The position numbers and the translations under genes are program-made. Below are positions 2,817-33,200 of a stretch of DNA of 37,295 nt, in pieces. Position 1 is the stretch's first letter. Each line of letters opens with the position of its first letter. Origin of the DNA: Nanobdellota archaeon (GTDB taxonomy: Archaea > Nanobdellota > Nanobdellia > Pacearchaeales > GW2011-AR1). The notes beneath the pieces were generated by a model that searched no databases, was not told where the DNA came from, and saw only the letters and a program-made list of their open reading frames with translations. The stretch spans positions 1 through 37,295 of the forward strand of contig JAYEHV010000029.1 in NCBI GenBank assembly GCA_034716495.1, given 5' to 3'.

Positions 2817-3037
2817 GCGATAATTTCCCTCCAGTCCTTTATTACTTTTATATTCTTAATAAAACAAGAACTATAATCTCGGAGTATTGAAGTTATTAAA
2901 TCATTATAAAATTCGGTCATTCCTTTAGACTCATTATAACAACAATCAAATGAATAATGCTCTAAAACTCCTTTCTTATTCTTTCTCAAGAACAATAGAT
3001 TAAAGGTTATCTTTTTACTCATTTCTCTATAAACCAC
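2804..3037 (-). CDS. Hypothetical protein
   Basis: 77 aa. Overlaps both neighbours by 13 and 19 nt, in the same orientation as the array. Confidence 0.5.
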   Translation of the reverse strand: MVYREMSKKITFNLLFLRKNKKGVLEHYSFDCCYNESKGMTEFYNDLITSILRDYSSCFIKNIKVIKDWREIIAWLE

Positions 3038-3829: not shown

Positions 3830-3831
3830 TT

Positions 3832-4365: not shown

Positions 4366-4379
4366 TTTTTTTTCACCTG

Positions 4380-4730: not shown

Positions 4731-4765
4731 ATTTTAACTCCTTTTTATTTTCACGATCTGTTATT

Positions 4766-5515: not shown

Positions 5516-5542
5516 TTTATTTTTTCATCTCGTTTTTTTTCT

Positions 5543-12987: not shown

Positions 12988-13818
12988 TTAGAACTCATCT
13001 AACTCCTCATCATTGACGAAATCAGCATCTTCGCATCTGGGCGCCAAAAAGTAGCTTAACTCAGACCCTTCAAGAATACTAAATATCATTTTGAGAGGGT
13101 GGTCTGTTTTGAGAGAGACTTCTAATCTTTCGGTAATGGAGGATATTTTTAGAATTGATTTTAGAAACAAAAGTGAATAAGCTCCATTACTGATTCCTGT
13201 AATTTCGGATTCAATTAAATCCTCTATACTCAAATCATATTCCATCTCCCCTATCTGTCCGGAAGAACTAAAGAAGATTCCATTTTCTTCATCCGCCTTC
13301 ATGTTTAGAATCTCAGAATAGATCTCAGCGTCTTTTAAAGCTTCAGAGATTATATCTGTATCCATATCAAAGGTGCTGGGATATTCTATAGATAGTAAAT
13401 TCTCCATTGGAATATCTTCTTGCTCTGTGTCTATCGTTGCTAAACTAAAGGTTCGCTTTCTGGTTTGACCTTCTTGACAGAACTGCATACGGATTTTAGA
13501 ATCTTTTTTATAGTATCCAAACTCTAAAATATCTTTATTATTACTCCTCTTCAAAATCTTAGTAAGATCGTCTAAGTTAAGGCCTATTTTCTCACTATTT
13601 TTGCATGTATAGACATCGAAATTCTCTTGTTTCATGGTAAGTCGGATTAAACAGATGCGGCTTGGGTCCATCGCATTAATTTGCAATTCATCAGAAGAAA
13701 CGTCAATAATACATTCATCTATGATTGAATTGAGTGTTTCTACAATCACGCTGAAGATCTTGCTATTCTCGAGTTTGAAATAAAATATAGGTTCGACCAT
13801 TATTCTATAATCCTCCAC
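12988..13818 (-). CDS. pcn: PCNA-like DNA sliding clamp, paralogue 2
   Basis: 276 aa. ELQINAMDPSRICLIRLTM, SSGQIGEM, TDHPLKMIF and YFLAPRCEDAD follow the canonical PCNA layout. Acidic tail DADFVNDEELDEF. The internal ATG at 13800 (MVEPIFYFKL, TAATG overlap with the upstream stop) may be the true start. Confidence 0.8.
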   Translation of the reverse strand: MEDYRIMVEPIFYFKLENSKIFSVIVETLNSIIDECIIDVSSDELQINAMDPSRICLIRLTMKQENFDVYTCKNSEKIGLNLDDLTKILKRSNNKDILEFGYYKKDSKIRMQFCQEGQTRKRTFSLATIDTEQEDIPMENLLSIEYPSTFDMDTDIISEALKDAEIYSEILNMKADEENGIFFSSSGQIGEMEYDLSIEDLIESEITGISNGAYSLLFLKSILKISSITERLEVSLKTDHPLKMIFSILEGSELSYFLAPRCEDADFVNDEELDEF

Positions 13819-16995: not shown

Positions 16996-18711
16996 TTATG
17001 ATAATACTATTAACCTATCTATTACGGAATACAGGAAGAACTCAGTTAATTTACGATAAAATGCATATCCAAACATATTTATTGTCCATGTCTCATATTG
17101 GCTTTTATGATTGATTAAGTCAATTACTCCCGCCTCACGACCGTACCAATATCGAAACCAACGCCATTTATAGATATACACTCTATCCATGTCAAAATGC
17201 CTACATATATCCAGATCTAATTTATATTCTTTATTTTTCACATAGTCGGTATCTCTAAACTCATAATCAAATGTACCGATAAACATAAATCTCTTTGCCC
17301 TTGGTACATTAACCTCTGTGCTTTCTCTTTCAAATTTAACTAAAGAATAAAAATCTTGGATCGGTTGAGTAGGTTGATTAGCGCTATATAATAATTCTGA
17401 CTCATCAGAAATATAGTCATATTCTTGTAGATTACCCAAGAGTAAGGTATAAAGATTTAGAGCAGGGGAGGTTCTATAAACCATTGAAACAGAATAATCC
17501 CAGTTCAAATCGAGCTGATAGATATTTTGAGTTAGGAGATTATAATCTCTATCTCCATCCAATTGATCTTGTATTGAAGGTAATTTTATAATTCCTGCCT
17601 CTTTGCCATCGTCTTGAATGGCTTTGATAAAAAGACTTAAATTGGTTCTTGCAATCTCTATCTCCTCATCTGACGTAAGCGCAGAGAACAAATATAGCCC
17701 AGAGGATGCCTCCTCCTCTAAGTCATTCACTAAATTAATTGGTGTTTCCGCATCTACTTCGATAAAATCGACATAGGACCAAATACCATTCGCAATCCCC
17801 CACGCACGGATCTTTAGATAATATTGGTGAAAATATTGCGCATTATGAATACTGCAATAAAACTCTCCATCGCCTCCAATAGAAATCCCAAAATTAACGG
17901 AGTGATTTATGAGGTAATTCATTCTGTTTAAAAGCTTACTTGTGTAAGAAGAGCTATCAATATTTCTGGCGCGAAATACCATTGAATATGCAATATTATT
18001 TGCAGACCATCTATCCAATGTAGCGTTATCTGTTGGACATATATCAGGGGCCCCCCAAAATACTATTTGTGGATTGTTTTTAGGGGCAATAACAATTACT
18101 CGAATAGGTAAAATCATTAGGAAACTGCTTATAATAATACTTAGAATTAATCCTAATCGAAGATAAGGGTGGAGCTTAATCTTACGCTCGTTTCTTATCC
18201 TAATTAACTTAAATGAAAGAAGAGTTGCGTAAAGCGAGGGAATAAATAGGATGGAGAACTCTATGACTGTGAGGAAAGCGGGTTTTTGATGAAAGATCAA
18301 GCAAAACCCTGCAAATACTAACGCATTAAACAGGAGTAAAATAAGTTTTATCGTGCCTTTACCGTAAAACTTCGCTATAAATATAGAAGATACTATAGTT
18401 GCTACAAATAATCCTAAATATATTAATTCGATTAATGACGTAGGTAATGTTAATAAGAAAAATCCTAATACTACTCCAGATATGCTAATAAAGATTAGAG
18501 AAAGATACACTCTGAAGGAGCGTTTAGTTAATATGAAATAGATAAAAATAATCAATACCCCTCCATAAATAATCTCAACGAGGATTAAATCAATAATAGA
18601 GAACTCAGGAGAAAAAACAAAAAAAAGGGAGAAAATACTAATTTGAACTATTGCGAAGAAATATCCTGTAAGTAATGTTAGAATTATTTTATTCACTAAT
18701 AGTTTATTCAT
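16996..18711 (-). CDS. Polytopic membrane protein with a large C-terminal soluble domain, function unknown
   Basis: 571 aa. The first ~215 aa form about 8 hydrophobic helices (e.g. ILTLLTGYFFAIVQISIFSLFFVF, GGVLIIFIYFIL). The remaining ~350 aa are Trp/Tyr/Asp-rich and non-hydrophobic. Confidence 0.7.
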   Translation of the reverse strand: MNKLLVNKIILTLLTGYFFAIVQISIFSLFFVFSPEFSIIDLILVEIIYGGVLIIFIYFILTKRSFRVYLSLIFISISGVVLGFFLLTLPTSLIELIYLGLFVATIVSSIFIAKFYGKGTIKLILLLFNALVFAGFCLIFHQKPAFLTVIEFSILFIPSLYATLLSFKLIRIRNERKIKLHPYLRLGLILSIIISSFLMILPIRVIVIAPKNNPQIVFWGAPDICPTDNATLDRWSANNIAYSMVFRARNIDSSSYTSKLLNRMNYLINHSVNFGISIGGDGEFYCSIHNAQYFHQYYLKIRAWGIANGIWSYVDFIEVDAETPINLVNDLEEEASSGLYLFSALTSDEEIEIARTNLSLFIKAIQDDGKEAGIIKLPSIQDQLDGDRDYNLLTQNIYQLDLNWDYSVSMVYRTSPALNLYTLLLGNLQEYDYISDESELLYSANQPTQPIQDFYSLVKFERESTEVNVPRAKRFMFIGTFDYEFRDTDYVKNKEYKLDLDICRHFDMDRVYIYKWRWFRYWYGREAGVIDLINHKSQYETWTINMFGYAFYRKLTEFFLYSVIDRLIVLS

Positions 18712-18723: not shown

Positions 18724-18870
18724 TTATGCTGATTTATTACTAACGATCTTTCGATCTAAATTCTTATTCCGACCTCTGGGCGCGGTTTTCTCAAAAGTTA
18801 GTTTTCTTTTTTTTCCCTTAACTTTTTTAATTTCTGTCCATTGGTCTCCTACTTTTCTTTTCTTTGCCAT
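18724..18870 (-). CDS. Small, highly basic protein (48 aa)
   Basis: MAKKRKVGDQWTEIKKVKGKKRKLTFEKTAPRGRNKNLDRKIVSNKSA. AAGGTG lies 8 nt upstream of the ATG. Fills the gap between 18711 and 18891. Below the track cutoff. Confidence 0.45.
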   Translation of the reverse strand: MAKKRKVGDQWTEIKKVKGKKRKLTFEKTAPRGRNKNLDRKIVSNKSA

Positions 18871-18890: not shown

Positions 18891-20306
18891 TTATTTTGCT
18901 AAAGCAGCCATTTCTTCGGTAATTTTTATTAGTTCTAATTCAAATTCTTCTTTCTTTGGTGATTCAAATTCTATTATATCTTGAATTTCTAATTCTGGTA
19001 AGTCTTCGTATATCTTCTCAAAGTTTCTAGCTGTTTTAAGATCTATAGGATATTCTCCAAGATAATTTTCTTTGAGCCTCTTCTCCTCTTCAATAGAGAG
19101 TTGCCGACCTAATTGATTTTCAATATCTTCTAATATCCACTCATATTGAATTTTAACTCGTTCAATATATTGATCATTATTAGGGCTTGAAACGGTAAAT
19201 ATTTCGGGATTTCCTTTCATCGCATGATGGTGATATTCGGGCGATTCCTCATATATTTCTTTATACTGGTAGTAATTTTCTATTTCAGCAGAGGTATAAC
19301 CTTCTGAAATTAAACCTTTAATTTCATCCTCTTGGTGTTTTATCATTGCTCTTCCATATTTTTCTCCACTCCAAATGGATTGGTCAGGTATTAGTCCTTC
19401 TGCTTGTAAGTGATTTATCTCGTTGAATACTCTTAATCCAATAGGATCTCCGCTAGGAGTAAAATGATAAGCAGTTTCCATCGCTTCTTGCCTGTTCGCG
19501 TTTTTCAATCTTTCGTCTTCACTTTTATAAATTCCCCTAATTATTTTATTAATAGCATTTTTGTATCCGGTACTTTCCCATTGTGCTACTGCTTTAGTGA
19601 AGGTTTTTGCAGGATCTCCATGTGTTCTATTGTAAGCTTCAATTAGGATTTTTTCTTGTTGTTCTCTCGTTAATCCCATCGCATCTAAGTTTTTAAAAAC
19701 TCTTAATTTCGCTTGTAAAGTTGATACTTTTAAACCGTCATTATAAACTAAGTCTTTTGCGGTCTCAGTTATTACAGTTTTCTTATTTAACCATTCGGAA
19801 TACGCCAATGTATATCCATCATCTAATATCGGCATTAAACCCGTTTCTTCTTCATAGCGTTTTTGATTCTTCTTTGACTCAGGTTTTAATTTCTCAATAT
19901 GAGTCATTGAACGAATAAATCTTCCATCAGGATCAGCCTCGTAAATATAACCTTCATACATTACCATTTGATATGGTAATCCTAGTATTGGTGGTTTATC
20001 TACTGCGGGAGGAATATACCCATCTAACCCATACACATCGTAATAATTGGGTTTATCTTTCCAAAACTTATTTGGAATCGCAAACATTAGTCTCGCATTC
20101 TTTTTCCTATCCATCGTAATGGACCGAGAGGATCTGCTTTCAAACAAGTTTTCTGCTTTCCCTCTGATTATTCTCCTTTTCATTTTGCTAATTGCTTCTT
20201 CATTACGCCAATAACCTTGACTATGAGGAGGTACATTAACGGTTTTTCCCTTACGAATATAACTAAAACCTTTTTTCTTTTTTTGCTCTTTTAGTTTTTT
20301 AGGCAT
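18891..20306 (-). CDS. Protein with the shared basic N-terminal module; remainder unknown
   Basis: 471 aa. N-terminus KKKKGFSYIRKGKTVNVPPHSQGYW...RGKAENLF (about 20142-20306) aligns with the N-termini of the next three large upstream genes. Confidence 0.65.
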   Translation of the reverse strand: MPKKLKEQKKKKGFSYIRKGKTVNVPPHSQGYWRNEEAISKMKRRIIRGKAENLFESRSSRSITMDRKKNARLMFAIPNKFWKDKPNYYDVYGLDGYIPPAVDKPPILGLPYQMVMYEGYIYEADPDGRFIRSMTHIEKLKPESKKNQKRYEEETGLMPILDDGYTLAYSEWLNKKTVITETAKDLVYNDGLKVSTLQAKLRVFKNLDAMGLTREQQEKILIEAYNRTHGDPAKTFTKAVAQWESTGYKNAINKIIRGIYKSEDERLKNANRQEAMETAYHFTPSGDPIGLRVFNEINHLQAEGLIPDQSIWSGEKYGRAMIKHQEDEIKGLISEGYTSAEIENYYQYKEIYEESPEYHHHAMKGNPEIFTVSSPNNDQYIERVKIQYEWILEDIENQLGRQLSIEEEKRLKENYLGEYPIDLKTARNFEKIYEDLPELEIQDIIEFESPKKEEFELELIKITEEMAALAK

Positions 20307-20323
20307 TTTAATTTCCTTTTTTT

Positions 20324-20503
20324 TTATAATAATGGTTTTGCTTTGCCCTTTTTTATTTTAGATTTAATTTGTTTTGGTAAATCTGTCTTAATACGGCCCC
20401 CATCTTCTTGAAACCGTTTTTTATAAAAATTATAATCTTGAATGATTTCATTCTGAAGGGCTTGGTTTTTTAGTTTTAATTCTAACTTTTCTGATTCTGA
20501 CAT
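20324..20503 (-). CDS. Small coiled-coil/basic protein (59 aa)
   Basis: MSESEKLELKLKNQALQNEIIQDYNFYKKRFQEDGGRIKTDLPKQIKSKIKKGKAKPLL. GGAG lies 5 nt upstream of the ATG. One residue below the track cutoff. Confidence 0.45.
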   Translation of the reverse strand: MSESEKLELKLKNQALQNEIIQDYNFYKKRFQEDGGRIKTDLPKQIKSKIKKGKAKPLL

Positions 20504-20521
20504 ATTCTCCGCTAAATTTGA

Positions 20522-20923
20522 TTATTTAGATTCAAAAAATAATTCTACTTTTGTGGTTTTAGATAGCTTCTTAAGAGCGCTTGATTCTAAGTTAGAATCC
20601 TCCGCCCCTTCTTCTCTCTTTTCTTGTATTTCTTGAATTTCACTCATTTCTCCTTCCGCTAACTTCTCAATCTCTTCTAAGCCATAACCTTGATCCAATA
20701 ATTTTATTATTTCTGCTTCGGTTTCTAATGATAAAACATCAGGGTTCTGATCAATCAATTGTTTTGCAGCACCACTCATAACTTTTGACTTGGCTTTTTG
20801 CGTTATTCGGGGATTCTTAACATTATATGTTTGAGAATGCTTAGAAACCCATTCCTTTTTGCCATGTCTCGTTCTATAATACCCTTCTTTTTCTTTTTTT
20901 TCTTTTACCATAGCTTTTTTCAC
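20522..20923 (-). CDS. Minimal member of the shared-N-terminal-module family (module plus acidic tail)
   Basis: 133 aa. KKEKEGYYRTRHGKKEWVSKHSQTYNV...SGAAKQLI, followed by an acidic Glu-rich C-terminal half. Confidence 0.6.
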   Translation of the reverse strand: MKKAMVKEKKEKEGYYRTRHGKKEWVSKHSQTYNVKNPRITQKAKSKVMSGAAKQLIDQNPDVLSLETEAEIIKLLDQGYGLEEIEKLAEGEMSEIQEIQEKREEGAEDSNLESSALKKLSKTTKVELFFESK

Positions 20924-20956
20924 TTTTTTCTATTCTTAAAATTTTTTAAAAAAAAA

Positions 20957-23900
20957 TTAAAATTCTACTCGTTTCTTCTTATATTCGGACTCTAAGAGCT
21001 GTAATGCTTGACTAGGATTTAGATTTCTCTCTGTAATGCTAAGTTGCATTGCTTTATTGAAAATGTCTTTTGGCTTTTCATCTGTTCCGGCAATTTTTAA
21101 AGCAATATCCGTGTCTTTGTTGTCCCATGCCCAATTCTGCTGATATTTAAGCGCATTAATTAGCTCTCCCTTTTTCATCCTATGTCGTCCTACGATTTTC
21201 TCTTTCTGTGCTACTTTGTAGATTTGGTTTCTTGTTAGCTCATGTAATTTCTCTGTATGAGGTAATGTTCTAATCGTTGCTTTTGATTCTTTCTGAACGG
21301 CTTTTGGTGCTGATCCTTTAACTAAACCTCGCGCTCTTTTGTGTTGATAAAACTCAGAGGTTTGAAATTTCTCAGCATCTGTGCCTTCGGATCGCTTGAT
21401 AAATTGCTTTACCCAAGCCATTCTATCTTTCTTAGTAGGACATTCACGATCTCCTTGCGCACCATAGAATTGAGGGTATTCGTCTTGAAGTGTAAAATTA
21501 AACGCATTATATTCATTATAGGCTTTTCTTCTCTTTAGAATACGCTCTGCAAATCCTCCAAAATCGTCTTTATATTCAACGATAATAGGTTGTTCTTTTC
21601 CAACGGATACCCTCATAGCACGACCTGCGGTTTGCATAACTGAGATGGGACTATATTCTTGTGATGCCCCAGCACCTAAAATTACATCTAATGCAGGTAG
21701 ATCAAAGCCCTCACTAAGTAAAGACCCTGTGCCAATCGCGATATTTGTTTTTCCCGATTCAAGCATTTTCTTATTAGTTTCAATATCAGATTTCTTCATC
21801 TTTTTAAGTTTTCCGCTCGCATCTCTCTTCTTTCCCGCTAGTAATACTGGTTTAGTGTTTGGATACTCTTTTTCCAATAGTTCTTTTAGATCGTTTGCGT
21901 GATTCAATGATTTAGTGAATATAATGGTCTTTTTCCCTGCTGTATGCATTCTATTTGCGTGATCGATAATCAGATCGTTTCGCGCTTCGTTCTCCTCTAC
22001 TTGCGCTCTTACTTTAGCGGTAAATTTGTTTTTTATTCCATCTCGATCCATGATATAATCTATTTCAGATTCTAAGTCCTTGCGTTTTGGAATAGGAATA
22101 ACAACGACATTAGGTTTCATTAGCATTCCCCTATCTTGCGCTTGTTTGTACGTGATTGGAATCCTTTTATCTCCGATTTTCATAACTCTAAGGATGTCGT
22201 CTTGCGCATCTCTGCTTGGTGTAGCTGTGAGTCCAAATTTATGAATCGTCTTATTTTCGTCATAAACGCTATCAAAGCTTCTAGCTGTAATATGATGCGC
22301 TTCGTCTTGAATGATTATCTCTGATTCTCTGAGTATTTTTAGACAAATTTTATCCTTTTCGCTAAGTGTTTTTCCCTCCTCAATTTTTTTTATTGCACTA
22401 TGCATCCCTTGAATTGTTCCTACATTAATATCTGCTTCATCTGTCCAGCTAGGTGTGAAATTTTCGCTATCTAACAGTCCAATATTTACATCTTCAGGTA
22501 GGAATTTATCAAACGCCTCTTTCGCTTGGTCTCGAAGCGTACCTCGATGAACTAAGAAAAGTGAATCAACATCTACTTTTTTACCCGTTTTCTCTTCGTA
22601 TTTTTCTGCACCTTTTATAAATCCGCTTATAACTCCCGCCGCCATCATGGTTTTTCCCGTACCAGTCGGAGATACAATAAGTCCTTGCCCTTCAATCAAG
22701 CTTTCTAAAACTGCTTGCTTTTGATAGTTATAAAGGTCCACTCCTTTAAGTTCGGGATTGGAGACTGGAGATCGTTCTCTTGTATCTGCTACGGCCACAT
22801 CAAAATTATAGGAACGCTTTAACAACCAATAGGCTTTTGATAATAAGCCAATAGGCATAACATATTCCCCTTTATCGTTAATTTCTACGGCTGCATATAC
22901 CTCATCTTTTTTCCCGCGCTTTGACATCGTTCTTTTATAAGCTGTATTTAGAACATCCATTGCCAATTCTTGATCTTTTCTCTTATCACCTGGATTTTTG
23001 GAACCAGATTTGAGTACGACATTATTTCCATGAACCTCAAAAATAAATGCGTTCGAATCAGAGTGAAGAACAATCTCTTTTTGAATATTTGCTTTCTCTA
23101 ACCATTCTTTTTTAGTGTCGTTTTGACCAACGATAGAATAAAGAAGATCTTCTCTCCCATATCTATCGTTTCTATCTTTAAACTCGTCAATAACGCTTTC
23201 CAGATCGTCAGCATCTATAACAAATTGACTCCCTTGAACCCATCTGCCCCCATGTTTATCTCTAACTACTTGCAAGAAAGTCTCGTAGTTAGCGCCTCTC
23301 ACTTTGTAGTTTCCACCTTCGCCTATGTTATCCCAAGAGAGTAAAATTTTATCTCCGTTTTCGCTAAGTTTAACCATGATTGTAGCGCTTTTAGGGTCTT
23401 CTTTCCCCTTAAAAAATTCTTCGAAAAATGGATTCTCTATTGTTTCTACTGCTCCCTCCTCTTTCTTCAGTTGCTCTAAAGTTTTAAAATTAAACCTGTC
23501 AGCTTCGCTTAATTCCCCGTAAAAATCGTCATGCCAGCCCTCGTTTTCCGCAAGAATTTCATCCTCTACTAAGACTCGGAATATGCTGTATAATCGGTTT
23601 GCTTCTGCTCTTTCGTCTTCGATCTCTTTTTGGATTTTTTCTTTCTCTGAATTATCCTCAGACCACTCATATCTCTTTTGAAGATCGTCTATTGCGCTTA
23701 ATTTCGTGATCCATTGCTTATAGACCTCACTATCTACAAGTTTCTCTTCAATGATAATTCTCTGGATTTCTTTTTGCGAAATTCCAAATAGTTCAGGGTC
23801 TAATACTTCTTCCTGAATCCTCTTTTGAATTTCTTCAATTGAATCCTCTTTTGCCTCCTCGATATCTTCTTTAATAATTTCCTTTACTTCATCTTCGGTG

Positions 23901-24103
23901 ATTAAAGTTTTTGCTTTTCCCTCTTTCACTTGTTTTTTTGCTTTCTCGGAGAGTTCGGGTTTAACATGGACCTTTTTCTTATGGGAGCTTACAGTTTCAA
24001 CCTTACCCCCTTTAACGCGCTTATATTCATCTATCTGGCGCTCTTGGGTAGGATACCATTTAAGAAGGGAAAGTTGAGTTTTTTCTTTGGTTTTTTTTGC
24101 CAC
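20957..24103 (-). CDS. SF2 DEAH-box helicase (ResIII/XPB-UvsW-like core) with long N-terminal extension, shared N-terminal module and C-terminal HeH/Rho_N-like motif
   Basis: 1048 aa, GTG start. Q motif YNYQKQAV. Motif I VSPTGTGKT. Motif II IIQDEAHHI. Motif III GLTATPSR. Motif V LSEGFDLP. Motif VI QTAGRAMR. C-terminal LHELTRNQIYKVAQKEKIVGRHRMKKGELINAL resembles Rho_N/SAP helix-extended-helix. N-terminal YKRVKGGKVETVSSHKKKVHV...EGKAKTLI is the shared module. Confidence 0.85.
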   Translation of the reverse strand: MAKKTKEKTQLSLLKWYPTQERQIDEYKRVKGGKVETVSSHKKKVHVKPELSEKAKKQVKEGKAKTLITEDEVKEIIKEDIEEAKEDSIEEIQKRIQEEVLDPELFGISQKEIQRIIIEEKLVDSEVYKQWITKLSAIDDLQKRYEWSEDNSEKEKIQKEIEDERAEANRLYSIFRVLVEDEILAENEGWHDDFYGELSEADRFNFKTLEQLKKEEGAVETIENPFFEEFFKGKEDPKSATIMVKLSENGDKILLSWDNIGEGGNYKVRGANYETFLQVVRDKHGGRWVQGSQFVIDADDLESVIDEFKDRNDRYGREDLLYSIVGQNDTKKEWLEKANIQKEIVLHSDSNAFIFEVHGNNVVLKSGSKNPGDKRKDQELAMDVLNTAYKRTMSKRGKKDEVYAAVEINDKGEYVMPIGLLSKAYWLLKRSYNFDVAVADTRERSPVSNPELKGVDLYNYQKQAVLESLIEGQGLIVSPTGTGKTMMAAGVISGFIKGAEKYEEKTGKKVDVDSLFLVHRGTLRDQAKEAFDKFLPEDVNIGLLDSENFTPSWTDEADINVGTIQGMHSAIKKIEEGKTLSEKDKICLKILRESEIIIQDEAHHITARSFDSVYDENKTIHKFGLTATPSRDAQDDILRVMKIGDKRIPITYKQAQDRGMLMKPNVVVIPIPKRKDLESEIDYIMDRDGIKNKFTAKVRAQVEENEARNDLIIDHANRMHTAGKKTIIFTKSLNHANDLKELLEKEYPNTKPVLLAGKKRDASGKLKKMKKSDIETNKKMLESGKTNIAIGTGSLLSEGFDLPALDVILGAGASQEYSPISVMQTAGRAMRVSVGKEQPIIVEYKDDFGGFAERILKRRKAYNEYNAFNFTLQDEYPQFYGAQGDRECPTKKDRMAWVKQFIKRSEGTDAEKFQTSEFYQHKRARGLVKGSAPKAVQKESKATIRTLPHTEKLHELTRNQIYKVAQKEKIVGRHRMKKGELINALKYQQNWAWDNKDTDIALKIAGTDEKPKDIFNKAMQLSITERNLNPSQALQLLESEYKKKRVEF

Positions 24104-24150
24104 TTTTTTTTAAACCTCTTTTTTTTTGCTTATTTTCTAGATTTGTTTTT

Positions 24151-24162
24151 TTCTTTATATGT
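24151..24162 (-). promoter_or_regulatory. TATA-like box (ACATATAAAGAA on minus strand) in the 110-nt gap upstream of the helicase gene
   Basis: This is one of the few real intergenic gaps in the right array. The box lies 48-59 nt upstream of the GTG start, with AGAGGT 10 nt before the start. Sequence-only guess. Confidence 0.25.
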
Positions 24163-24213
24163 TTTTAGGTAAATTGTGAAATTCCTTTAAATTTTCTAAT
24201 TTTTCTCATTTTT

Positions 24214-25647
24214 CTATTTAAAATTTGATAGTTTTTTATATTTTGATTGTTCTTTCGCACTTAGGCCTAAATCCATTGCTTTTTCATTTACTCCTGCAAA
24301 TCCTAAGATTCCCTTTTGACTTTGACTTGTCTTAAAGTTCTCTAATGACTTATCTACCACTTTTGACTTATCTACAAAATCTTTAAGTTCAAATGGTTTG
24401 ATTTCTTCTTTTTTACTTTTTTTCATCCCTAAGAACTTATCTAAATCTGTTGTTGGAGATAATTTTAAATGGGATAAGTTATATTCATCGATCCAGGAAT
24501 TATAGACATTAGTTTTCTTTCTGACAAGAGCATCATATTTCTTAATTAATTCTTCGTCTGCGACATCTGAAAGTTCTATTTTGTTGAGTAGTTTCGCCTC
24601 TTGTTCTTTTAATGTAGTATATTGGTGTAGTTTATGAACTGAAAGTTCCCGCCGCCCTCCAATTAGTTTATCGGGATGAGGATCGTCTAATAGTTCTACT
24701 CTAAATTTAGCTTTATCCCAATTTGAAGGGTCTAAGGAATAAGTTCTTACCCCTGTTTCTGCTTCAAATAAAAGCCTACCCGCAGAGTATTTCAATAGTA
24801 ATAGAGGATCTGCAATTAAATTCTTGTATCTTTTATCATTCTTGAAGTAATTATTTATGATCTTTTTGGATAATTGATAGGTAGATATATCAGTTTTAAG
24901 GAATCTTGCTAATTGCTCCGGGTCTTCTATATTCATAATAATTGTTTGAGCGGTCGTTGGAGTTAGGATAAATTCTGGTTTCATTACCTCTAAGTTAGAA
25001 ATATCACCTCTACTAGGTAAGGGAAACATATGATCGGGGTGTGTATGACCAAATAACTCAAAATCATTGAGTTTTAAAGTGTAATCTTTCGCACCTTTCA
25101 TAATGTATAACCGTTCCGGATTGGAATCTTCTCGTTCAAAATCAATAGCAAAACTATATTCATACGGACTAAATCTGGATATCTCCCTAATTCCTTTTAG
25201 CATGTTATAGGGGATCTCCTTTACCATCGTTTGTTGTGGTTTGCTTCTATTCGCAATATTTAGGTCAAATGTGCCCTTTTTTATATAGATTGATTGTTCT
25301 ATAACATCAAGAACCTTTTCTACTTTGTCGTAAGATACACCGTACTCATGATGACCGAGAGGATAATCTTGCATGATGTCTATGATTTTTTTCTCTTGCC
25401 ATACATTAGTCACCACGCCCTCTATACCAGATAGTTTATATTTAACGCGATCTCCATACTCAAACATTTTAGGTTGAATTAATTGTTTGCTGGATCCTGC
25501 TATTCGATTTTTATTTCTTATTTCTCTTGCACTTCTTTCTCGATAACGATAAGTAACCTCATGAGCAGGAACCACCACTACTTTCCCGTTCTTTTTGGTA
25601 TAGGTATATCCTTCTCTTCGCTTCTTTTTATCGTAATAATTAGCCAT
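24214..25647 (-). CDS. JAB/MPN-like metallopeptidase-motif protein with the shared N-terminal module
   Basis: 477 aa. GHTHPDHMFPLPSRGDI (25003-25047) fits the JAMM signature HxH-x(7-8)-S-xx-D, with 8 spacer residues instead of the canonical 7. Candidate upstream Glu in AIDFEREDS. N-terminus KKRREGYTYTKKNGKVVVVPAHEVTYRY...AGSSKQLI. Confidence 0.5.
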   Translation of the reverse strand: MANYYDKKKRREGYTYTKKNGKVVVVPAHEVTYRYRERSAREIRNKNRIAGSSKQLIQPKMFEYGDRVKYKLSGIEGVVTNVWQEKKIIDIMQDYPLGHHEYGVSYDKVEKVLDVIEQSIYIKKGTFDLNIANRSKPQQTMVKEIPYNMLKGIREISRFSPYEYSFAIDFEREDSNPERLYIMKGAKDYTLKLNDFELFGHTHPDHMFPLPSRGDISNLEVMKPEFILTPTTAQTIIMNIEDPEQLARFLKTDISTYQLSKKIINNYFKNDKRYKNLIADPLLLLKYSAGRLLFEAETGVRTYSLDPSNWDKAKFRVELLDDPHPDKLIGGRRELSVHKLHQYTTLKEQEAKLLNKIELSDVADEELIKKYDALVRKKTNVYNSWIDEYNLSHLKLSPTTDLDKFLGMKKSKKEEIKPFELKDFVDKSKVVDKSLENFKTSQSQKGILGFAGVNEKAMDLGLSAKEQSKYKKLSNFK

Positions 25648-25650
25648 TTT

Positions 25651-26871
25651 TTATATCACCAATTTTTTAGGTTTTGGAGGAAGATATTTCCTTACTTCGT
25701 CCTCCGTATAAGTATAATCTTTCAAACACCAAATCCCGCGCTCTATATTTTCAAATAACTCATCCTTATAGCTTGAAAGAGCAGAGCGTATTTTTTTTGC
25801 TTCTAATCCCGTAATTGCCACGATTTTTTGTATATTTACTACACCTTCTTGATGTAAAGCATTAAATATTTTGTCTTTATTCTGTAATGGTTGTAGGCTT
25901 ACTTCCTTTCGAGCAAACTCCCAGTCTAATTGTTCAATCGCTTTTACTAAATCGGTCCGCCTAACTTTTATTGTATAATCTTGCTCTATCTGATTTGCAA
26001 ACGGATATAAGAATCCTTTTAATTGTCCTCTGGTGAAATCACTCACAGAGCATTTTAATCTTTCCAACTCTGTTCGTAATGCATCTTTAAGAAGGCCAAG
26101 TAAAAAGGCTTCATCAATTGACCTATCAATCACTACATCATATTTTACCTGTTCTTTAGAGGAGTAGGGAACTTCAATCGTGGCCGTTTGACCGGTCTTC
26201 GCTTTAGCTAAACAAAATCTTAGAGCGTCAAAATTAAACCCTACTTGACCCTCCCATGTCGCTAATCGTAATAATTCTGATTGTTCTGGAGTGAAAATCT
26301 TATGAAACCAATTTAGATCATAATAACTTGTATAGACTTGTAATATTGAATTTTCTCTAAGAGTCGCATCTAAGCGCGAATATACTTGAACAGCAAAAAT
26401 AAAAAATATTATTCCATTTTTCTCATAAAGATCCTCTAATACATGCCTCGAAACACAGAATTGTTGTGTAATTTCGACATTATCCCCTGACATAGACCTT
26501 CGTGAATCTGTACCTTCACCAATAGCATCATCTACTACAATAACTAATACATGCTTACCCTCAAAATATTCGCTATATCGCTTATCGCCAATCACGCGCG
26601 GATCATTGGTTGCAACTACACTAATTAATCCTTCATAGTCAGGAATAGAGCGGAGTAATTCTACTAAATATCGGATTAAAACAGACTTGCCCGTCCCCTG
26701 CCCTCCTATAAAGGACATTGCTTTTAGAACCCATTCGTGAGGAGTATTCTCACATTTGAGAATATGTAATAATAATTCTTTGGGGTTTAATACCTCGTAA
26801 TCCTTCCCATTAACATTGATATTATGAGTGTTTAAAAATGGATTTTTACCTACTTGAACGAATCCTGGTAT
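25651..26871 (-). CDS. P-loop NTPase with C-terminal wHTH; N-terminus extended to an apparent ATA start
   Basis: Walker A GGQGTGKS and Walker B HVLVIVVDDA. C-terminal NIQKIVAITGLEAKKIRSALSSY is wHTH-like. The track start (26718) lies 5 residues before the P-loop. The frame is open for 52 more codons up to the TAA at 26877-26875, with no ATG/GTG/TTG. ATA at 26871-26869 is the second codon after that stop and lies 6 nt after GAGTGA. Confidence 0.65.
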   Translation of the reverse strand: MPGFVQVGKNPFLNTHNINVNGKDYEVLNPKELLLHILKCENTPHEWVLKAMSFIGGQGTGKSVLIRYLVELLRSIPDYEGLISVVATNDPRVIGDKRYSEYFEGKHVLVIVVDDAIGEGTDSRRSMSGDNVEITQQFCVSRHVLEDLYEKNGIIFFIFAVQVYSRLDATLRENSILQVYTSYYDLNWFHKIFTPEQSELLRLATWEGQVGFNFDALRFCLAKAKTGQTATIEVPYSSKEQVKYDVVIDRSIDEAFLLGLLKDALRTELERLKCSVSDFTRGQLKGFLYPFANQIEQDYTIKVRRTDLVKAIEQLDWEFARKEVSLQPLQNKDKIFNALHQEGVVNIQKIVAITGLEAKKIRSALSSYKDELFENIERGIWCLKDYTYTEDEVRKYLPPKPKKLVI

Positions 26872-26877
26872 TTTTTA

Positions 26878-27495
26878 TCACTCTCTAACTTTTTGTTTTT
26901 TTTTATCAAAAATACCATGTTTCTTTTTTAATAGAGGATCATTTGGCATAAGCGTATCTTCGTCAAGTTTGCTCATTGCATCTGCATCTGCACCAACTTG
27001 TGCGTTATAAGGGATTCCATATTTTCCACAGTTCTTAAGAAATGTATTTCTTCTTTTCTCAGCTTTATTTATGAGATCTTGCTTTCCAATATTAACCGAA
27101 TGTAATTGATATATTAATTTTTTTAGCTCGATTAGTTGGTCCTTTAACGGTTCAAAACCTTCCTTTCTAAATTGGATGAATTTTGGAGAATTTTCACCAA
27201 GTTTTTCTTTTGCTTGTGTAATATTTGTATAATCTATATCATCTAGTTTTCTTTCTAATTGTGAGATTGGTTTGAAAACTTCACATGTAGTATTATGGCA
27301 AATCTTTAAATCAACAATAGACCTTTTCAGTAATTTGAATCTATTTAATATATCTCGATCTTCATACCATTTATCTTCTATCTCGTTCCAAATATCACCT
27401 CGCGGAATTAATTCCTCGATCGTTTCTGATAATTCTTCAATCTTTTCCAATGCTTGTTTGAGTTGTTTTGCTAATACTTCAGGATCTTCTTCCAT
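26878..27495 (-). CDS. Coiled-coil protein, function unknown
   Basis: 205 aa. Heptad-like Glu/Lys/Leu-rich sequence. Confidence 0.6.
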   Translation of the reverse strand: MEEDPEVLAKQLKQALEKIEELSETIEELIPRGDIWNEIEDKWYEDRDILNRFKLLKRSIVDLKICHNTTCEVFKPISQLERKLDDIDYTNITQAKEKLGENSPKFIQFRKEGFEPLKDQLIELKKLIYQLHSVNIGKQDLINKAEKRRNTFLKNCGKYGIPYNAQVGADADAMSKLDEDTLMPNDPLLKKKHGIFDKKKQKVRE

Positions 27496-27496: not shown

Positions 27497-28723
27497 CTAA
27501 CCCCCCTCTAATTCGTCTCTGATTACAATTTGGTTGAGTTTTTTAGCGTCTCCATTACCGCCGAGCTTTTCTTTGAGTATATTATTCTCAGCCATTAGAT
27601 AGTTCATCTGATTCCTTAATTCTTGTGTGTCTTCGCTATTTTGAGCTAAAACTTCACTTATTATTGTCTTGATTTCTTTGTCCTCTCGTTTTCCCTTAAA
27701 CGCGGTTGAAAGTATTTCTGCGTAAGTATCGGGATGCATCACACTAGCTTGATTTACTTTTACTGCCATATCTCCTAATTTCGAATTGAAATTTCTAAAC
27801 ATTTCGGCAATTTGGTCTCTAGCTTGGTTATATTTCTTATCCAATTCGATGTATTGCTTGGTTATTTTAGCAACTTTTAGGTCCATTAAACTTTTGAGAT
27901 TGTCAATGTGCGGTTGTTTTAGGATTGCTTCGTTAAGGTTTCTGGTTTTTATAATCTTGTGTTTAAAATGAGTTGCTTTAATGCTTCCCGTCTTTACATT
28001 TTTGTCTCGCTTTAGATCTTCTATTTCAAATAGAGTTAGGTTTTTTGCTTTTCTTTCTTTAACAATCATACCCTGTTTCTCGTCTATAATTTTCTTTCTG
28101 TAGGTCACCTTTTGAGCAACCGTTCTAATCCGATCAAATAATAATTGATGTTGTAGAGTGTGGATTTTGTTTATTAAAATGGGATTTCCATCATTATCCA
28201 ATTTATCTTGAAATTCTATCGTAAGATATAGCTTTCTGGAAATGCTCGTACTTGGAAGAATTGCGCTTAATATCCTATAAATTACGTATTTAGCTGTATT
28301 AGATTTGGATTTAACTCGTTCTTGTTCTGGGAATTTTAGAGAATCATCTAATTTTGTTTCACGATAAATTATATCGGAGAAATACTTCAAGATTCCAAAC
28401 GAGAGATATGTATGATCTCTAACTTCAGTAAAAGAATATTTACACCTGACAATATTTATTTGATTATGTTTAAACATCAATTTCCAATAATTTGGGAAAT
28501 CTGGATCTTTTTCTTGGGATACAAAACGACCTAAATATATACTTTCTCCATTCTCATCTTTGAAATAACAATAAGGCGATAATGCAACTCTCCAAATTCT
28601 TATAATCATTAAGGATGTAAAAGCCGAGAATAACCAAATAAAAATAGGATTAGCGTTAAACCAATCGAAGATTTGTAATACAAAATCTATTGGTGCGAAT
28701 GTAGGATCATCACTAAATATCAT
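27497..28723 (-). CDS. N-terminally membrane-anchored coiled-coil protein
   Basis: 408 aa. One hydrophobic helix near the N-terminus (PIFIWLFSAFTSLMIIRIW), with long helical Lys/Glu-rich C-terminal stretches. Confidence 0.65.
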   Translation of the reverse strand: MIFSDDPTFAPIDFVLQIFDWFNANPIFIWLFSAFTSLMIIRIWRVALSPYCYFKDENGESIYLGRFVSQEKDPDFPNYWKLMFKHNQINIVRCKYSFTEVRDHTYLSFGILKYFSDIIYRETKLDDSLKFPEQERVKSKSNTAKYVIYRILSAILPSTSISRKLYLTIEFQDKLDNDGNPILINKIHTLQHQLLFDRIRTVAQKVTYRKKIIDEKQGMIVKERKAKNLTLFEIEDLKRDKNVKTGSIKATHFKHKIIKTRNLNEAILKQPHIDNLKSLMDLKVAKITKQYIELDKKYNQARDQIAEMFRNFNSKLGDMAVKVNQASVMHPDTYAEILSTAFKGKREDKEIKTIISEVLAQNSEDTQELRNQMNYLMAENNILKEKLGGNGDAKKLNQIVIRDELEGG

Positions 28724-30201: not shown

Positions 30202-33200
30202 CTATTTCCTCTTTCTCTTTTTATCTTTTTTTTTCCAAAATTGTAATTTCTTTAGGGATTCGGGTTTCGTTATCCCATAATAAATGATAACAAAGCCAAG
30301 TAAGGCCGCACCGGCGGGAATTAATAACCAAGCCGCATCCCAAATAACTAGTTTCTCAAATTCTATCCTTATTACATTAGTACCTTGTGCTAAATTGAAA
30401 TCAATTACTTGATAATAATGAACCCCATCAAGATCGTAAAGTTTTATATGAGTTAGAAATTCGCTAGGTGTTGAAATAGCGTTTAACTTGATATTTTCTT
30501 CGCTCTGAATGTAAAATTCAAGATTAACATCGTAAGCAGGATAATTACAAACGATTGTATATTCTACATATCCAGAGCCTTGTACTCTTTCAATTGAACT
30601 GATAGGATTTGTTTTAACTCTTAAATACGAGCTAGTGATTGACGAATCAAATCCAGAACATACAAAATAACCCTCACCTACACCATAATAATTCGTTCCG
30701 TAATGAACACCATCTAATTCCCAGCCCTCATCAGTAGGGACGATCCACGATTCAGAATATCTTTCATACTCTAAATACACATTATAATATTCGCTTAAAG
30801 TCTGGTAATTGCTTTCCGTAATAGTGAATGCGCCCTCGTTAATATATTGACTGATATTAGCGGTAGGGATTGAACTATTACCGTTTATGGTGAAGGATTG
30901 TACGGACGTGCTAAAAGAAATATTAGGAATTTCGAGATTATAAGTTTGAGAGGATTGAATAGCACTTAAACTCCAATTGTCCATATATACGCCATCGGAT
31001 CTAAGGGGAATTACGATGGTGACATTCTCTAATATTATATCTGACATGTAATTCACCCGAACTTCCGAGTATGTACCGTTATTTTCCAAAACTTCGTATG
31101 TAAGATTATAGTTTGGATTCACATCAAGTATGGCCTCGAAAAGATCGTTTATTTCTGTTTTTTGAGATAAATCAAACTTGTACTTGTCATTCTCAATAGT
31201 GAAATCATTACCAGAATAAATCGTTCCTGTTCGTAAATGTTCCATTTGATTGACCTCATTAATATCAAGATCTCCAACAAAATACCAATACTTATAATCC
31301 AATTCTGCTAGGAATAACTCACTAACTAAAACACTTGCCGTATCTGTTCTTGGTGTATTTGTAATTTGGGTTCTTGTTCTTAAATTATCTAAATACCTTA
31401 GTTGAACAGAGAAAGTATCCAAATTAACATAGGTAGAACCAATAAGAGATAAGATTTCGAGAGAATCTGAGTTAATATCATAATTGTAATTTGTACTTTG
31501 AGTTCCATCAAAATAATAATATGTGAAATTGTCAGGTATGTTTGTTAAATTTGCGCTATTAAAAGTTATAAATGTGAATGGAGAGCTTTTCTGAGTGAAA
31601 CTAAAATCGTAATTAACATAGTCAGAATAATCTACTGTCTTATTGATGTATAAAGAGGCATTCTCGATAAGTAAGTCAAATGTTAGCGAGCCCGCATGAT
31701 CTATAAGTAAGTCAAACGAATTTGCCTCAGTCTTATTTATTGTGAGGAGATTATTACTTACATTTACACCATTTACAGTTAAATTTACCAGACTTGAGTT
31801 AGTCACCACTTGAATAATTGGTAGAACCTCAAAACTCATAAGTTTCCAAGCGCCCATGTAACTCTCTGCTGTATCGTTAAACGAACAATTTATATGGTAA
31901 AATCCTTCGGTCCAGGTGATATTCATCAAAATATCAATATCGATCTCTCCTAATGCATCTGTAGTTGAAGATGTATTTACGAAAGTAATATTGTTGTGGT
32001 CGTAGATCGTGTAATTAATCGGTTTACCTTGGATTGGTTGATTATAAAGGTCTCTAAGCGAAATAGTTAAGTTTAGACTGGCATCTTGATCATAACTACT
32101 TTTTAGATTAATAATGTCCATGATTGTAGTCCTCTGAATATGGCATAAGTTAGTTATATTCATCCAATACGTATCGTTATACTCGTCTATCACTTTTATA
32201 CTTACATTATAGACCGTTTGAACGGGATAATTAATTGTAAAATTAAACTCGTATTGATAAAGAGGATATGTATCATTGTTGTATTCTTGAATGTAATCTG
32301 TGGAATTGTCGTAATATATCTCGATAATAGGTGCTGAGGACAGAACATTAAAATTTACAGTATTATTTGTATTTATGAATACAGGATTTTCATAACCAGC
32401 GGCTAGAGAAATACTTGGAATAACTGTATAATTTACGGCCCATAGTTCCCAATTTCCATGCGTATCAAAGAATTGTAATGTGAGATTATACAATCCAGAG
32501 GTTGTATTCCAGAAAGAAACGCTCTGAAGTGTATTGTTAATTAACGTTTCGTTGAAGATTACATTGGTTTGAGAATTTAGAGTCTGGTTTATTTCTACAT
32601 TGGAGATATATCGATCAGTCGCATTCCAGTAGATTGTTAAATTTTGATGCGAACCTAACAATGTATCGTCAATATAACAGTCATTTACATTATAGAAATC
32701 GCTATCAAAATCCCATAAAACCATATCATCGAAACTGACTTCACTTGGATTGCCGGCTAAATAAACCTCAAAATAATAGTCTAAAAATGTAGTTTTTGAA
32801 TTATTATTGAGGAAATCTGTTATGTTAAATGTGAGATCGCTACTAAATGACGTATTAGTAGTAAAATTATATATTAGCCATCCATCCTCACACTCCACCC
32901 CGATCCTATATAAAAACAATGAGGAATTAATAGAATTAGTAAAATTGTAAATTAGATAATCCGAGCTTTCTGTAAAGTTCATACTCCAATTCAAGATCCA
33001 ATTGCCTCTTGTTTTCTGCAAATAATCAATACTAAATACAGGATCAATTTTGAAATATTGATAAATTTCATTCCCCCCATAAAGATTTAAGCACTCAAAC
33101 GTAATAGTATAGTTCATATCTCTGATCTCTATAAGCCCATTAGTTATATTAAATATTAGATCAAAATCATCTACATCTGTGCTATTAAACTGAAAATTGT

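Follow-up and report, generated by a model that had tools for sequence, protein, structure and literature searches.

A previously undescribed, lineage-restricted domain of 50 to 60 aa is found in mobile elements associated with Nanoarchaeota (DPANN), where it forms the N termini of proteins that otherwise have little in common. In the window, i.e., the whole 37,295-nucleotide stretch of archaeal DNA analyzed here, four neighboring and otherwise unrelated proteins (A to D) begin with this basic module. An exhaustive search of 1.84 billion (1.84e9) representative proteins finds 46 carriers, all of which have it at the N terminus (residues 1 to 12), as does every copy in the related loci. Tentatively, the module might serve as an address tag for its diverse cargo.

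Shared N-terminal module

The ORFs of the four proteins proposed by a sequence-only reading of this DNA are all present on the minus strand: A (MEA3248439.1, 471 aa) at positions 18891-20306, B (MEA3248441.1) at 20522-20923 with a GTG start (or with an ATG at 20911, as in NCBI), C (MEA3248442.1) at 20957-24103, and D (MEA3248443.1) at 24214-25647. We trained an HMM on 55 module sequences from outside the window and searched the full set of 456 six-frame ORFs of the window with it. The profile matches the N-terminal modules of C (core residues 15 to 72, 23888..24103, minus strand; E = 3.3e-22), B (20741..20923, minus strand; 6.7e-19; P0006, 85.5 bits), A (residues 1 to 59, 20130..20306, minus strand; 5.8e-13; P0008, 81.6 bits), and D (residues 1 to 62, 25462..25647, minus strand; 5.4e-4; P0007, 83.9 bits). 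A small ORF with a half-module also matches (7.2e-4), and whatever follows, from 0.11 on, is noise. Compared pairwise against 2000 composition-preserving shuffles each, the N termini give z = 4.7 to 10.3 in five of the six pairs, the observed score being reached by 0 to 2 shuffles, whereas the C-D pair is weak (z = 1.8). These z scores and the window-free HMM confirm that the four proteins share the module and, for the same five pairs, that their similarity exceeds what lysine-rich composition would produce.

The region is AT-rich and lysine-rich, and the C-D pair alone is not significant, as might be expected from a chance likeness of lysine-rich N termini or from a regulatory RNA or DNA element that is conserved as nucleotide sequence and read through as protein. 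Shuffle scores reaching z = 10 and E values down to 3e-22 reject the compositional artifact. The module copies in the window are only 35 to 49% identical in nucleotide sequence and use different codons for identical residues, and no DNA repeats are found. This low identity marks the copies as old paralogues conserved as protein rather than recent repeats. With an invariant His and a nearly invariant Gly over 47 aligned family sequences and a confidently predicted fold, both forms of the artifact are refuted, and the chance that either is correct is negligible.

Several details of the sequence-only reading require correction. The spacers given there as 13, 15, 16, and 12 residues actually count 14, 15, 15, and 13. 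The module begins further upstream than the lysine run that comes first in the reported pattern and includes an extra first strand, as in 'PTxQIxIDxY'. The helicase copy (C), described as the more divergent one, is the most canonical in the family context, and it is D that diverges most. The four copies stand, but the tally misses a fifth, partial one in a 58-aa ORF between B and A (20324..20503, minus strand), which matches the helix half of the module (E = 0.006, 0.0013, and 7.2e-4). This half comprises its last ~22 residues, 'LPKQIKSKIKKGKAKPLL', which end exactly in GKAKPLL. The small ORF has no Pfam match and would be either what remains of a rearranged module gene or a variant reduced to the helix.

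AlphaFold2 (AF2) predicts that the module consists of a four-stranded β-meander (pLDDT 90 to 97) followed by a helix that ends in GKAKxL[IF]; both parts are basic. In the model of C, the four strands lie at residues 19 to 46 and the helix at residues 53 to 72; in that of B, pLDDT is 90 to 97 across all four strands. The best-conserved stretches are the His-containing strand and GKAKxL[IF], which marks the boundary between module and cargo and is followed by variable residues. The modules carry a mean net charge of +9.3, and the cargoes are neutral to acidic. As the sequence-only reading had surmised, this is not a named domain: the module has no Pfam match in any of ~60 proteins scanned (Bro-N and KilA-N models included), no significant match in PHROGs, and no Foldseek match at E < 0.1 in PDB or BFVD. 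The recurrent, non-significant Foldseek neighbors are exclusively nucleic acid-binding β-ribbons, namely, the arms of HU/IHF and uL23. Being a predicted folded domain of 55 aa and not a short signal peptide, the module is more readily understood as an adaptor or handle than as a simple leader.

Cargo proteins and gene neighborhoods

The cargo of C contains an SF2 helicase core (residues 456 to 832; 21608..22738, minus strand), and its earlier labeling as such is correct: both the ResIII/DEAD N-lobe (Pfam E values of 1.7e-25 for ResIII and 1.3e-9 for DEAD) and the Helicase_C C-lobe (2.9e-7) are recognized, and in PHROGs the protein matches phrog_16 (1.1e-56). The ~410-aa cargo of A (18891..20129, minus strand) matches no Pfam or PHROGs family; its orthologues in L005 (541 aa), L013 (482 aa), and L018 (365 aa) likewise bear the module. 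The cargo of B is an acidic tail of ~72 aa with a net charge of -11 (20522..20740, minus strand). For A and B, the previous descriptions, "unknown 420-aa domain" and "acidic tail," hold.

The conserved cargo core of D (24664..25236, minus strand) displays a JAMM/JAB-like signature, E163 ... H201-T-H203-P-x7-S212-R-G-D215 (motif at 25003-25047), that is invariant in three orthologues. Since Pro and x7 make up 8 residues between H203 and S212, compared to 7 in the classical motif (E ... H-x-H-x7-S-x-x-D), the D spacer is one residue longer. An hhalign comparison with a hand-entered AfJAMM sequence yields P = 0.003; the 70 aligned columns are collinear and contain every residue of the motif. The cargo has no Pfam match and no PDB sequence match. 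The proposed JAB/MPN assignment thus finds its signature but stays at the level of a motif and a weak profile similarity, and D is a probable, putative JAMM/JAB peptidase. At its C terminus, D has a second, ~60-aa tail module (24217..24399, minus strand), which is shared with P0039 (L001, 9167-9901) and with P0038, a protein that consists of the N-terminal module and a D-type tail and nothing else. L018 encodes the D-type cargo and the D-type tail in two separate genes, each with its own module, which fits a requirement for one tag per polypeptide. The module-bearing probable metallopeptidase is a core member that adjoins the ATPase gene in the window, L003, L016, and L018.

This ATPase, a P-loop protein with a C-terminal wHTH-like region (25651..26871, minus strand), is encoded directly upstream of the leading module gene in all loci that extend far enough to tell (the window, L001, L003, L016, and L018). 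It may be replication initiator-like or a motor; its sequence weakly suggests an AAA+/Orc-RFC-type protein with a wHTH more than a packaging motor. The genes for the ATPase and for TM proteins are invariably linked to the module array. Related metagenomic contigs contain 12, 6, 5, and 3 tandem module genes beside the same ATPase and membrane-protein core genes; in the syntenic relatives, the co-oriented arrays comprise 4 genes in the window, 12 in L001, 6 in L005, and 5 in L016. Such variation in array size between syntenic relatives is typical of an accessory gene set that turns over fast beside a conserved core.

Across the family, at least 26 unrelated cargo clusters can be distinguished, including the SF2 helicase, the probable JAMM/JAB peptidase, PRTase-CE, DUF6908, wHTH, zinc ribbons, Rho_N/HeH, and acidic tails. 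Some copies stand alone or nearly so, as in P0040 (49 aa) and in B with its acidic tail. With 46 N-terminal carriers, this range of cargo clusters, and tandem arrays of 3 to 12 genes, the idea of a portable tag on unrelated cargo is strongly supported.

Possible functions of the module

Since up to 12 tandem genes per element are headed by the module, and the module belongs to no known family, we propose a common address tag. The module might be an N-terminal, nucleic acid-binding adaptor that brings varied cargo to the DNA or the particle of the element for co-transfer, an explanation that we consider quite possible, if short of probable. Its basic β-ribbon would bind the nucleic acid or nucleoprotein of the element, and a variable set of enzymes and DNA binders (SF2 helicase, JAMM-like peptidase, PRTase-CE, DUF6908, wHTH, zinc-ribbon, and acidic-tail proteins) would thus be tethered to the element's DNA, with which it would move into a particle, a vesicle, or a new cell. 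Each separately encoded cargo protein carries its own copy of the module. We infer nucleic acid binding from the charge of the module and its non-significant fold neighbors; co-transfer, too, is a conjectural part of this proposal. Several points count against this explanation: a folded module of 55 aa is unlike the known short packaging leaders, IMG/VR and the GenBank phages yield no relatives, the resemblance of the adjacent ATPase, weak as it is, points away from a packaging motor, and a generic DNA handle would be partly redundant in the several cargoes with DNA-binding domains of their own (wHTH and Rho_N/HeH).

The same basic charge and predicted β-ribbon fold would also suit a domain that binds DNA inside the producing cell, in replication, transcription, or defense, and has spread by domain shuffling to regulators and DNA enzymes, with no packaging or delivery. 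There is a precedent in Bro-N and KilA-N of DNA viruses, which form multigene families with a conserved, strictly N-terminal DNA-binding domain and variable C termini. Many of the cargoes are DNA related (helicase, wHTH, zinc ribbons, and Rho_N/HeH), and replication genes for two PCNA homologues, an exonuclease, and the Orc/RFC-like ATPase lie in the neighborhood. However, neither Bro-N nor KilA-N nor any other Pfam family of DNA-binding domains matches the module in sequence; some cargoes (the JAMM-like peptidase, PRTase-CE, and bare acidic tails) have no obvious link to DNA; and the wHTH cargoes would need no second, non-specific handle. On balance, this alternative is doubtful, although it has to be taken seriously. 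We regard as fairly unlikely the proposal that the module is a packaging and delivery signal of a DPANN Nanoarchaeota element, be it a virus, a vesicle-forming plasmid, or another particle. Every tagged protein would then enter the particle together with the DNA and reach the next cell by ejection, all of them forming a "distributed polyvalent protein," a modular, rapidly exchangeable anti-defense and take-over arsenal whose cargo the module-bearing JAMM peptidase may release. If true, the T4 capsid targeting sequence (CTS) and P1 Dar systems would have their first counterpart in archaea, and a ready-made tag would be available to load foreign proteins into archaeal particles. Archaeal virion proteins often escape sequence recognition; Pfam and PHROGs recognize no capsid, portal, terminase, scaffold, or prohead protease in the window or the related loci, so that a particle stays hypothetical for this proposal and for the adaptor tag alike.

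Alternatively, the module could be a docking handle that recruits the cargoes to a single hub, either element-encoded or of the host. This could be the PCNA-like clamps of the element acting as a "tool-belt," the ATPase encoded next to the array, or a complex of the neighboring TM proteins in the membrane, and the β-meander could dock via edge-strand augmentation. The two PCNA homologues of the window and the constant linkage of the ATPase and TM-protein genes to the array are in line with this option, as are the PIP-box-like sequences QTGLDLFA and QTSLETFL that end the positionally equivalent N termini of the helicase and the D-like protein in the divergent relative L003, and QKGILGFA in the tail module of D. 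It nevertheless appears distinctly unlikely: neither the four window modules nor the 47-sequence family consensus contains the pattern Qxx[LIM]xx[FYW][FYW], the homology between the main-family and L003-type N termini is not significant (hhalign E = 0.066), and L005 has no PCNA gene at the syntenic position. Still less can be said for a cleavable propeptide, cut at or after G-K-A-K-x-L-[IF] in maturation, possibly by the JAMM-like D, which would be compatible with packaging but is very unlikely. It would explain the strong conservation of this motif at the boundary with the cargo and the presence of a module-bearing probable metallopeptidase beside the ATPase in four loci, and the T4 CTS leaders are indeed cut by the prohead protease. 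However, cleavage by JAB/JAMM enzymes is typically directed at isopeptide or C-terminal Gly-Gly bonds rather than at K-x-L sites. The predicted helix ends in the motif, which is perhaps conserved for folding, and the G-x-[AS]-K "cleavage site" of the sequence-only reading may be just the terminus of this helix. Nor do the stand-alone P0040 and the small ORF ending in GKAKPLL suggest a mere disposable leader.

Comparison with known systems

An address tag of this kind may be likened to the CTS of the T4 internal proteins and to the polyvalent proteins of phages and plasmids. What is new is the domain itself; the strategy is already known, and the tag would be a new variant of it. The T4 internal proteins form a diverse set with only the conserved CTS in common (PMC3012670). 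In the T-even proteins IPI, IPII, IPIII, and Alt, as here, a conserved N-terminal element is the sole common part of diverse, fast-evolving proteins of one element, the genes are clustered and differ in number between relatives, and the cargoes are plausibly directed against the host or its defenses. However, the CTS is an unstructured leader of ~10 residues that the scaffold core recognizes and the prohead protease removes by cutting at L/I-x-E, whereas the module has ~55 aa, is very basic and predicted to fold, and ends in GKAKxL[IF]. The two share no sequence similarity, the host lineage here is archaeal, and no genes for a capsid, scaffold, or protease are recognized.

Polyvalent proteins of phages and conjugative elements, which are proposed to be packaged or transferred with the DNA, combine 2 to 15 domains in one giant polypeptide (Iyer et al. 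2017, PMC5512222). SF2/SNF2 helicase, MTase, PRTase, RadC/JAB, MuF, ArdC-N, and MPTase domains are characteristic of them. Their repertoire partly overlaps with that of the module carriers (SF2 helicase, PRTase, JAB-type, and DNA-binding modules), and the presumed role, delivery with the invading DNA, would be similar. In contrast, the present elements have one gene per domain, each with its own N-terminal tag, in a "distributed" architecture; only helicase C exceeds 1000 aa, and it has a single catalytic core. The polyvalent hallmark domains MuF, ArdC-N, MPTase, and DdrB-ParB were not detected by Pfam in the module proteins scanned.

Bro-N and KilA-N proteins of DNA viruses and phages resemble the module carriers in combining a conserved N-terminal domain with many unrelated C-terminal domains and in having several paralogues per genome. 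The module, however, is half the size of these domains, lacks a match to their Pfam models, and has a different predicted fold (a β-meander and one helix). In the cargo-loading peptides of encapsulins and bacterial microcompartments and in the N-terminal trafficking domains of polymorphic toxins, one short terminal element likewise sends unrelated cargo to one destination, but these are short helices or peptides or recognized secretion system domains with no similarity to the module in sequence or fold; no shell or secretion system genes are recognized here. The clamp-binding PIP-box motifs of archaeal replication proteins, too, are terminal tags on diverse DNA enzymes, and the element encodes PCNA homologues. 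The conserved unit of the module family is a 55-aa domain, compared to the 8-residue PIP box, and the Q-x-x-[LIM]-x-x-[FYW]-[FYWL]-type motif is seen solely in the L003-type N termini and in the tail of D.

Conservation and predicted fold of the N-terminal module

The four ORFs, A (18891-20306), B (20522-20923), the helicase C (20957-24103) and D (24214-25647), all on the minus strand, coincide exactly with those named in the sequence-only reading. Each starts with a basic module of about 55 residues, and the N-terminal similarity goes beyond lysine-rich composition: in local alignments compared with 2,000 residue shuffles, 5 of the 6 pairs gave z values of 4.7 to 10.3, with all shuffles, or all but two, scoring below the observed alignment. 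C-D is the sole weak pair (z = 1.8). A profile HMM made with 55 module sequences from outside the window was run on the 456 window ORFs of 30 residues or more in six frames. It matches C (3.3e-22), B (6.7e-19), A (5.8e-13) and D (5.4e-4), as well as a half-module (7.2e-4) at the C terminus of a small ORF that separates A from B; the next-best match in the window is at 0.11. The divergent copy is D and not, as had been proposed, the helicase. That the similarity is an artefact is hardly credible.

At the DNA level, the four window modules share only 35 to 49% identity, residues that agree are often encoded by different codons, and no DNA repeats were found under the four copies. They are therefore old paralogues maintained by protein-level selection. 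The low DNA identity and the lack of an underlying repeat exclude recent duplication of the modules, and nucleotide identity likewise excludes a nucleotide element or a regulatory explanation at the DNA level. The small ORF (58 residues; 20324-20503, minus strand) lies between B and A, ends in LPKQIKSKIKKGKAKPLL* and holds, at its C terminus, no more of the module than its helix half; the complete module of A begins about 20 nt downstream. A gap in the numbering of NCBI accessions and locus tags makes it probable that this ORF is annotated as a gene (the module proteins of the window are MEA3248439, MEA3248441, MEA3248442 and MEA3248443); it could be a helix-only variant or a scar left by recombination.

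The module consensus is (K/R-rich)-[LP]PTxQIxIDxY-xRxKGGK-xExVSxH-xKxVxVKP-xLSKxxKxxIxxGKAKxL[IF]. Among 47 aligned sequences, the His is invariant and the Gly nearly so; the His is lost in a few divergent A-like copies on the related metagenomic contigs L001 and L004. AlphaFold2 models of two different paralogues, obtained with different alignments (the helicase N terminus with 7 sequences, mean pLDDT 76.5, and B with 47 sequences, mean pLDDT 81.2), both show a four-stranded antiparallel β-meander, with pLDDT of 90 to 97 in the deeper run; beyond the meander, a short basic helix is predicted, and after it comes the GKAKxL[IF] segment. Foldseek searches of PDB and BFVD with two independent models return nothing at E < 0.1 (best, 0.7, 0.12 and 0.8), the recurrent low-scoring neighbors being HU/IHF β-arms and ribosomal protein uL23, and neither Pfam nor PHROGs has a model for the module. 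This agrees with the initial impression that it is not a named domain; judged by sequence and predicted fold, it belongs to no known family. Its mean net charge is +9.3, and about half of the cargoes, i.e., the remainders of the module-bearing proteins, are net negative.

Cargo domains and a second portable module

The helicase C is, as first described, a bona fide SF2 member (ResIII, 1.7e-25; phrog_16, 1e-56). At its C terminus (20957-21300, minus strand), a Rho_N/HeH (SAP-like) DNA-binding motif, LTRNQIYKVAQKEKIVGRHRMKKGELINAL, can be seen by eye; Pfam detects Rho_N/HeH in family members. B consists of the module and an acidic tail, and the cargo of A is an unknown domain of about 410 residues with orthologs in the related contigs L005, L013 and L018, both as originally claimed. 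In the A family, the motif RS.RS..MD....A..MFA.PN..W....N..DV.G.DG directly follows the module (18891-20129, minus strand, in the window, and L004 3994-4332), and PN..W..NPNRYDV.GID recurs in an L018 protein (5768-6103) that has no canonical module.

The cargo core of D is conserved in L003, L016 and L018, three of the related contigs, with the invariant signature E163...H201-x-H203-P-x7-S212-x-x-D215. The spacer between H203 and S212 comprises 8 residues (P plus x7), compared with 7 at the equivalent place in the classical JAMM motif, and is therefore one residue longer. A pairwise profile alignment with AfJAMM places all motif residues collinearly (P = 0.003) and is no more than a lead. Sequence and profile searches of PDB, and Pfam, gave no match to this cargo. 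The assignment of D as JAB/MPN-like stands on its invariant motif and the collinear alignment and finds no support in the database searches; the cargo is a probable JAMM-like peptidase.

The single protein D corresponds to two genes in L018, each with its own module. The gene order there is ATPase, module plus JAMM-like core, module plus tail only (P0038, 115 residues) and module plus A-like domain. The C-terminal tail of D, about 60 residues long (24217-24399, minus strand), is itself a second portable module, also found at L001 9167-9901 and L018 4240-4587. It is common to D and the comparison proteins P0039 and P0038, has the pattern F.DKSK.KD.S...FKTG..Q.GIL.F.GV.EKA...G...K.Q.K.KKL..F and holds a PIP-box-like QKGILGFA; P0038 contains the N-terminal module and this tail and nothing else. 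L003, a more divergent relative (2037-5078, 5281-6561 and 6617-7126), has another kind of basic N terminus in the equivalent place on the helicase ortholog and the D-like protein, with repeated G(S/T)K..VK.H.R hairpin motifs followed by a PIP-box-like QTGLDLFA or QTSLETFL. These N termini align with the main module at Y-x-R...G...V..H, at an hhalign E value (0.066) that does not establish homology.

Module arrays, their distribution and possible function

An exhaustive HMMER search of 1.84 billion representative proteins with a 7-sequence module profile finds only 46 proteins with E ≤ 1e-3, 13 of them with E ≤ 1e-10. The module starts at residue 1 to 12 in all 46. Once it is removed, the cargoes of the 44 proteins with 100 or more residues fall into at least 26 clusters without detectable mutual similarity. 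They include SF2 helicase, PRTase-CE, DUF6908/DUF1249, wHTH, Rho_N/HeH, zinc ribbons and acidic tails and are otherwise unknown; P0040 (49 residues) is the module alone. P0028 is not assigned as a DNA methyltransferase, since the HPTQKP motif was noticed by eye and Pfam does not back the assignment. In related loci, module-headed genes form tandem, co-oriented arrays, with 12 genes in L001, 6 in L005, 5 in L016, 4 in the window, 3 each in L018, L013 and L004, and 2 in L011. These data bear out the description of the module as a portable tag: it is basic, predicted to be folded, strictly N-terminal and attached to very many unrelated cargoes.

The helicase has three homologs (47 to 54% identity), and synteny with the window extends to their contigs and to others reached via module-bearing proteins. 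Common to the window and L001 are the giant protein, the 408- and 205-residue genes, four genes for TM proteins, the ATPase and the helicase; common to the window and L005 are the A-like gene and the 571-residue TM protein. Arrays of variable size adjoin a conserved core of the ATPase and TM proteins. Word-indexed homology searches with 4- and 19-sequence module profiles gave nothing or one match, and no relatives were found in IMG/VR (scans with the helicase, D and the module profile) or GenBank phages (blastn of the region; tblastn of the module and the L003-type N terminus). Nucleotide scans with the strict back-translated pattern YxRxKGGKxExVxxHxK matched two short JGI metagenome contigs and, among GTDB species-representative genomes, gave one chance match only, antisense within a bacterial gene for a membrane protein. 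No description of the module was found in the literature on DUF6908, DUF5661, PRTase-CE or DPANN viruses.

The window (37,295 bp) is a complete NCBI contig of a metagenome-assembled genome, with a GC content of 29 to 38% and nearly all ORFs on the minus strand. It encodes an RNase-T-type exonuclease fusion, wHTH proteins, a P-loop ATPase and several multi-TM proteins; TM proteins are encoded at 16996-18711 and 27497-28723. No tRNAs, terminal repeats or end overlap were found in it, nor were housekeeping genes or, by Pfam and PHROGs, recognizable capsid, portal or terminase genes. Because of this gene content, without housekeeping genes, it looks like an archaeal mobile element, virus or plasmid, binned with a DPANN genome. 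To our knowledge, almost nothing is known about the workings of such elements in DPANN archaea.

The best explanation, which we hold tentatively, is that the module is an adaptor that would take its cargo to one destination. Because of its charge and β-ribbon, the most economical choice would be nucleic acid or nucleoprotein of the element itself, with putative DNA binding by the module, and the arsenal would then accompany the DNA during transfer. Separate modules on the two halves of D in L018 are what would be expected if every polypeptide needs individual addressing. A precedent for co-transfer comes from polyvalent proteins in phages and plasmids: packaging or transfer together with DNA has been proposed for them, and their SF2 helicase, PRTase and JAB/RadC domains overlap the module cargoes (PMC5512222). 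Counting against the adaptor tag are the lack of recognized particle genes in the window and the ATPase, which has only weak P-loop matches in PDB (RFC, ORC and VirB11, by phmmer and profile searches) and weakly resembles a wHTH-bearing AAA+ protein of the Orc/RFC type more than a packaging motor. The boldest reading, in which the module would be the signal by which an archaeal element packages and delivers a modular arsenal against its host, is doubtful. A domain that binds DNA solely inside the cell and is shuffled like Bro-N and KilA-N is somewhat doubtful. Docking of the module onto PCNA, the ATPase or a membrane complex is unlikely: two PCNA genes in the window and PIP-like motifs in the L003-type N termini and the tail of D speak for it, whereas the window modules contain no PIP box and the L003-type N termini have no significant homology to the main module. 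A cleavable propeptide, which would be compatible with packaging, is quite improbable.

While the domain itself is new, the strategy of one terminal tag on many cargoes is already known from the T4 CTS, Bro-N and KilA-N, encapsulin and microcompartment targeting peptides, and polymorphic-toxin trafficking domains. The present family differs in that its tag is a predicted folded domain of 55 residues, its architecture is distributed rather than fused, and its setting is a DPANN-associated archaeal element. One small domain defines a class of accessory proteins that makes up as many as half of a contig's genes, provides a handle for finding such elements and cataloguing their variable arsenal, and yields a single biochemical hypothesis, the binding target of the tag. 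If it is a co-transfer tag, the phage internal-protein and polyvalent-protein strategy would extend to archaea and the module might be used for cargo loading; if it binds PCNA or DNA inside the cell, it would be a new adaptor domain of archaeal replication-associated proteins. Under either reading, it is a new protein family that deserves a Pfam entry.

Other genes of the contig

The two PCNA homologs on this single mobile-element contig are a clear one (12988-13818, minus strand; PCNA_N, 1.5e-18, and PCNA_C) and a divergent one (4766-5515, minus strand; PCNA_N, 2.9e-4); L005 has no PCNA gene at the position syntenic to the first. A radical-SAM/DUF5131-like protein (7556-8338), a DUF6884 protein (2301-2816; 2e-19, also phrog_5935) and a weak ASCH match (174-614), all on the minus strand, may have a role in nucleic acid modification or metabolism. 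The giant ORF of 2,359 residues (30202-37281, minus strand), whose start is 14 nt away from the end of the contig, contains a sialidase-like CBM (4.8e-10) and, as a weak match, a Big_1 Ig-like domain. Over the C-terminal 384 residues it is 63% identical to the first ORF of L001, and it could serve the element as a giant adhesin or for receptor binding. Between A and the 571-residue TM gene lies a very basic ORF of 48 residues, MAKKRKVGDQWTEIKKVKGKKRKLTFEKTAPRGRNKNLDRKIVSNKSA (18724-18870, minus strand), which matches a 54-residue ORF upstream of the L003 helicase (blastp E = 2e-6).

The 205-residue gene ends in two in-frame stops, TGA TAA, and the ATPase frame follows directly (26700-26900, minus strand). 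This frame opens with K-I-P-G-F..., its homologs with M-P-G-[FY]...; since they have Met there, ATA replaces ATG in the window ATPase (25651-26871, minus strand), which probably starts at 26871 by a noncanonical or mutated start codon. The first ATG (26718) would cut off about 50 conserved residues.
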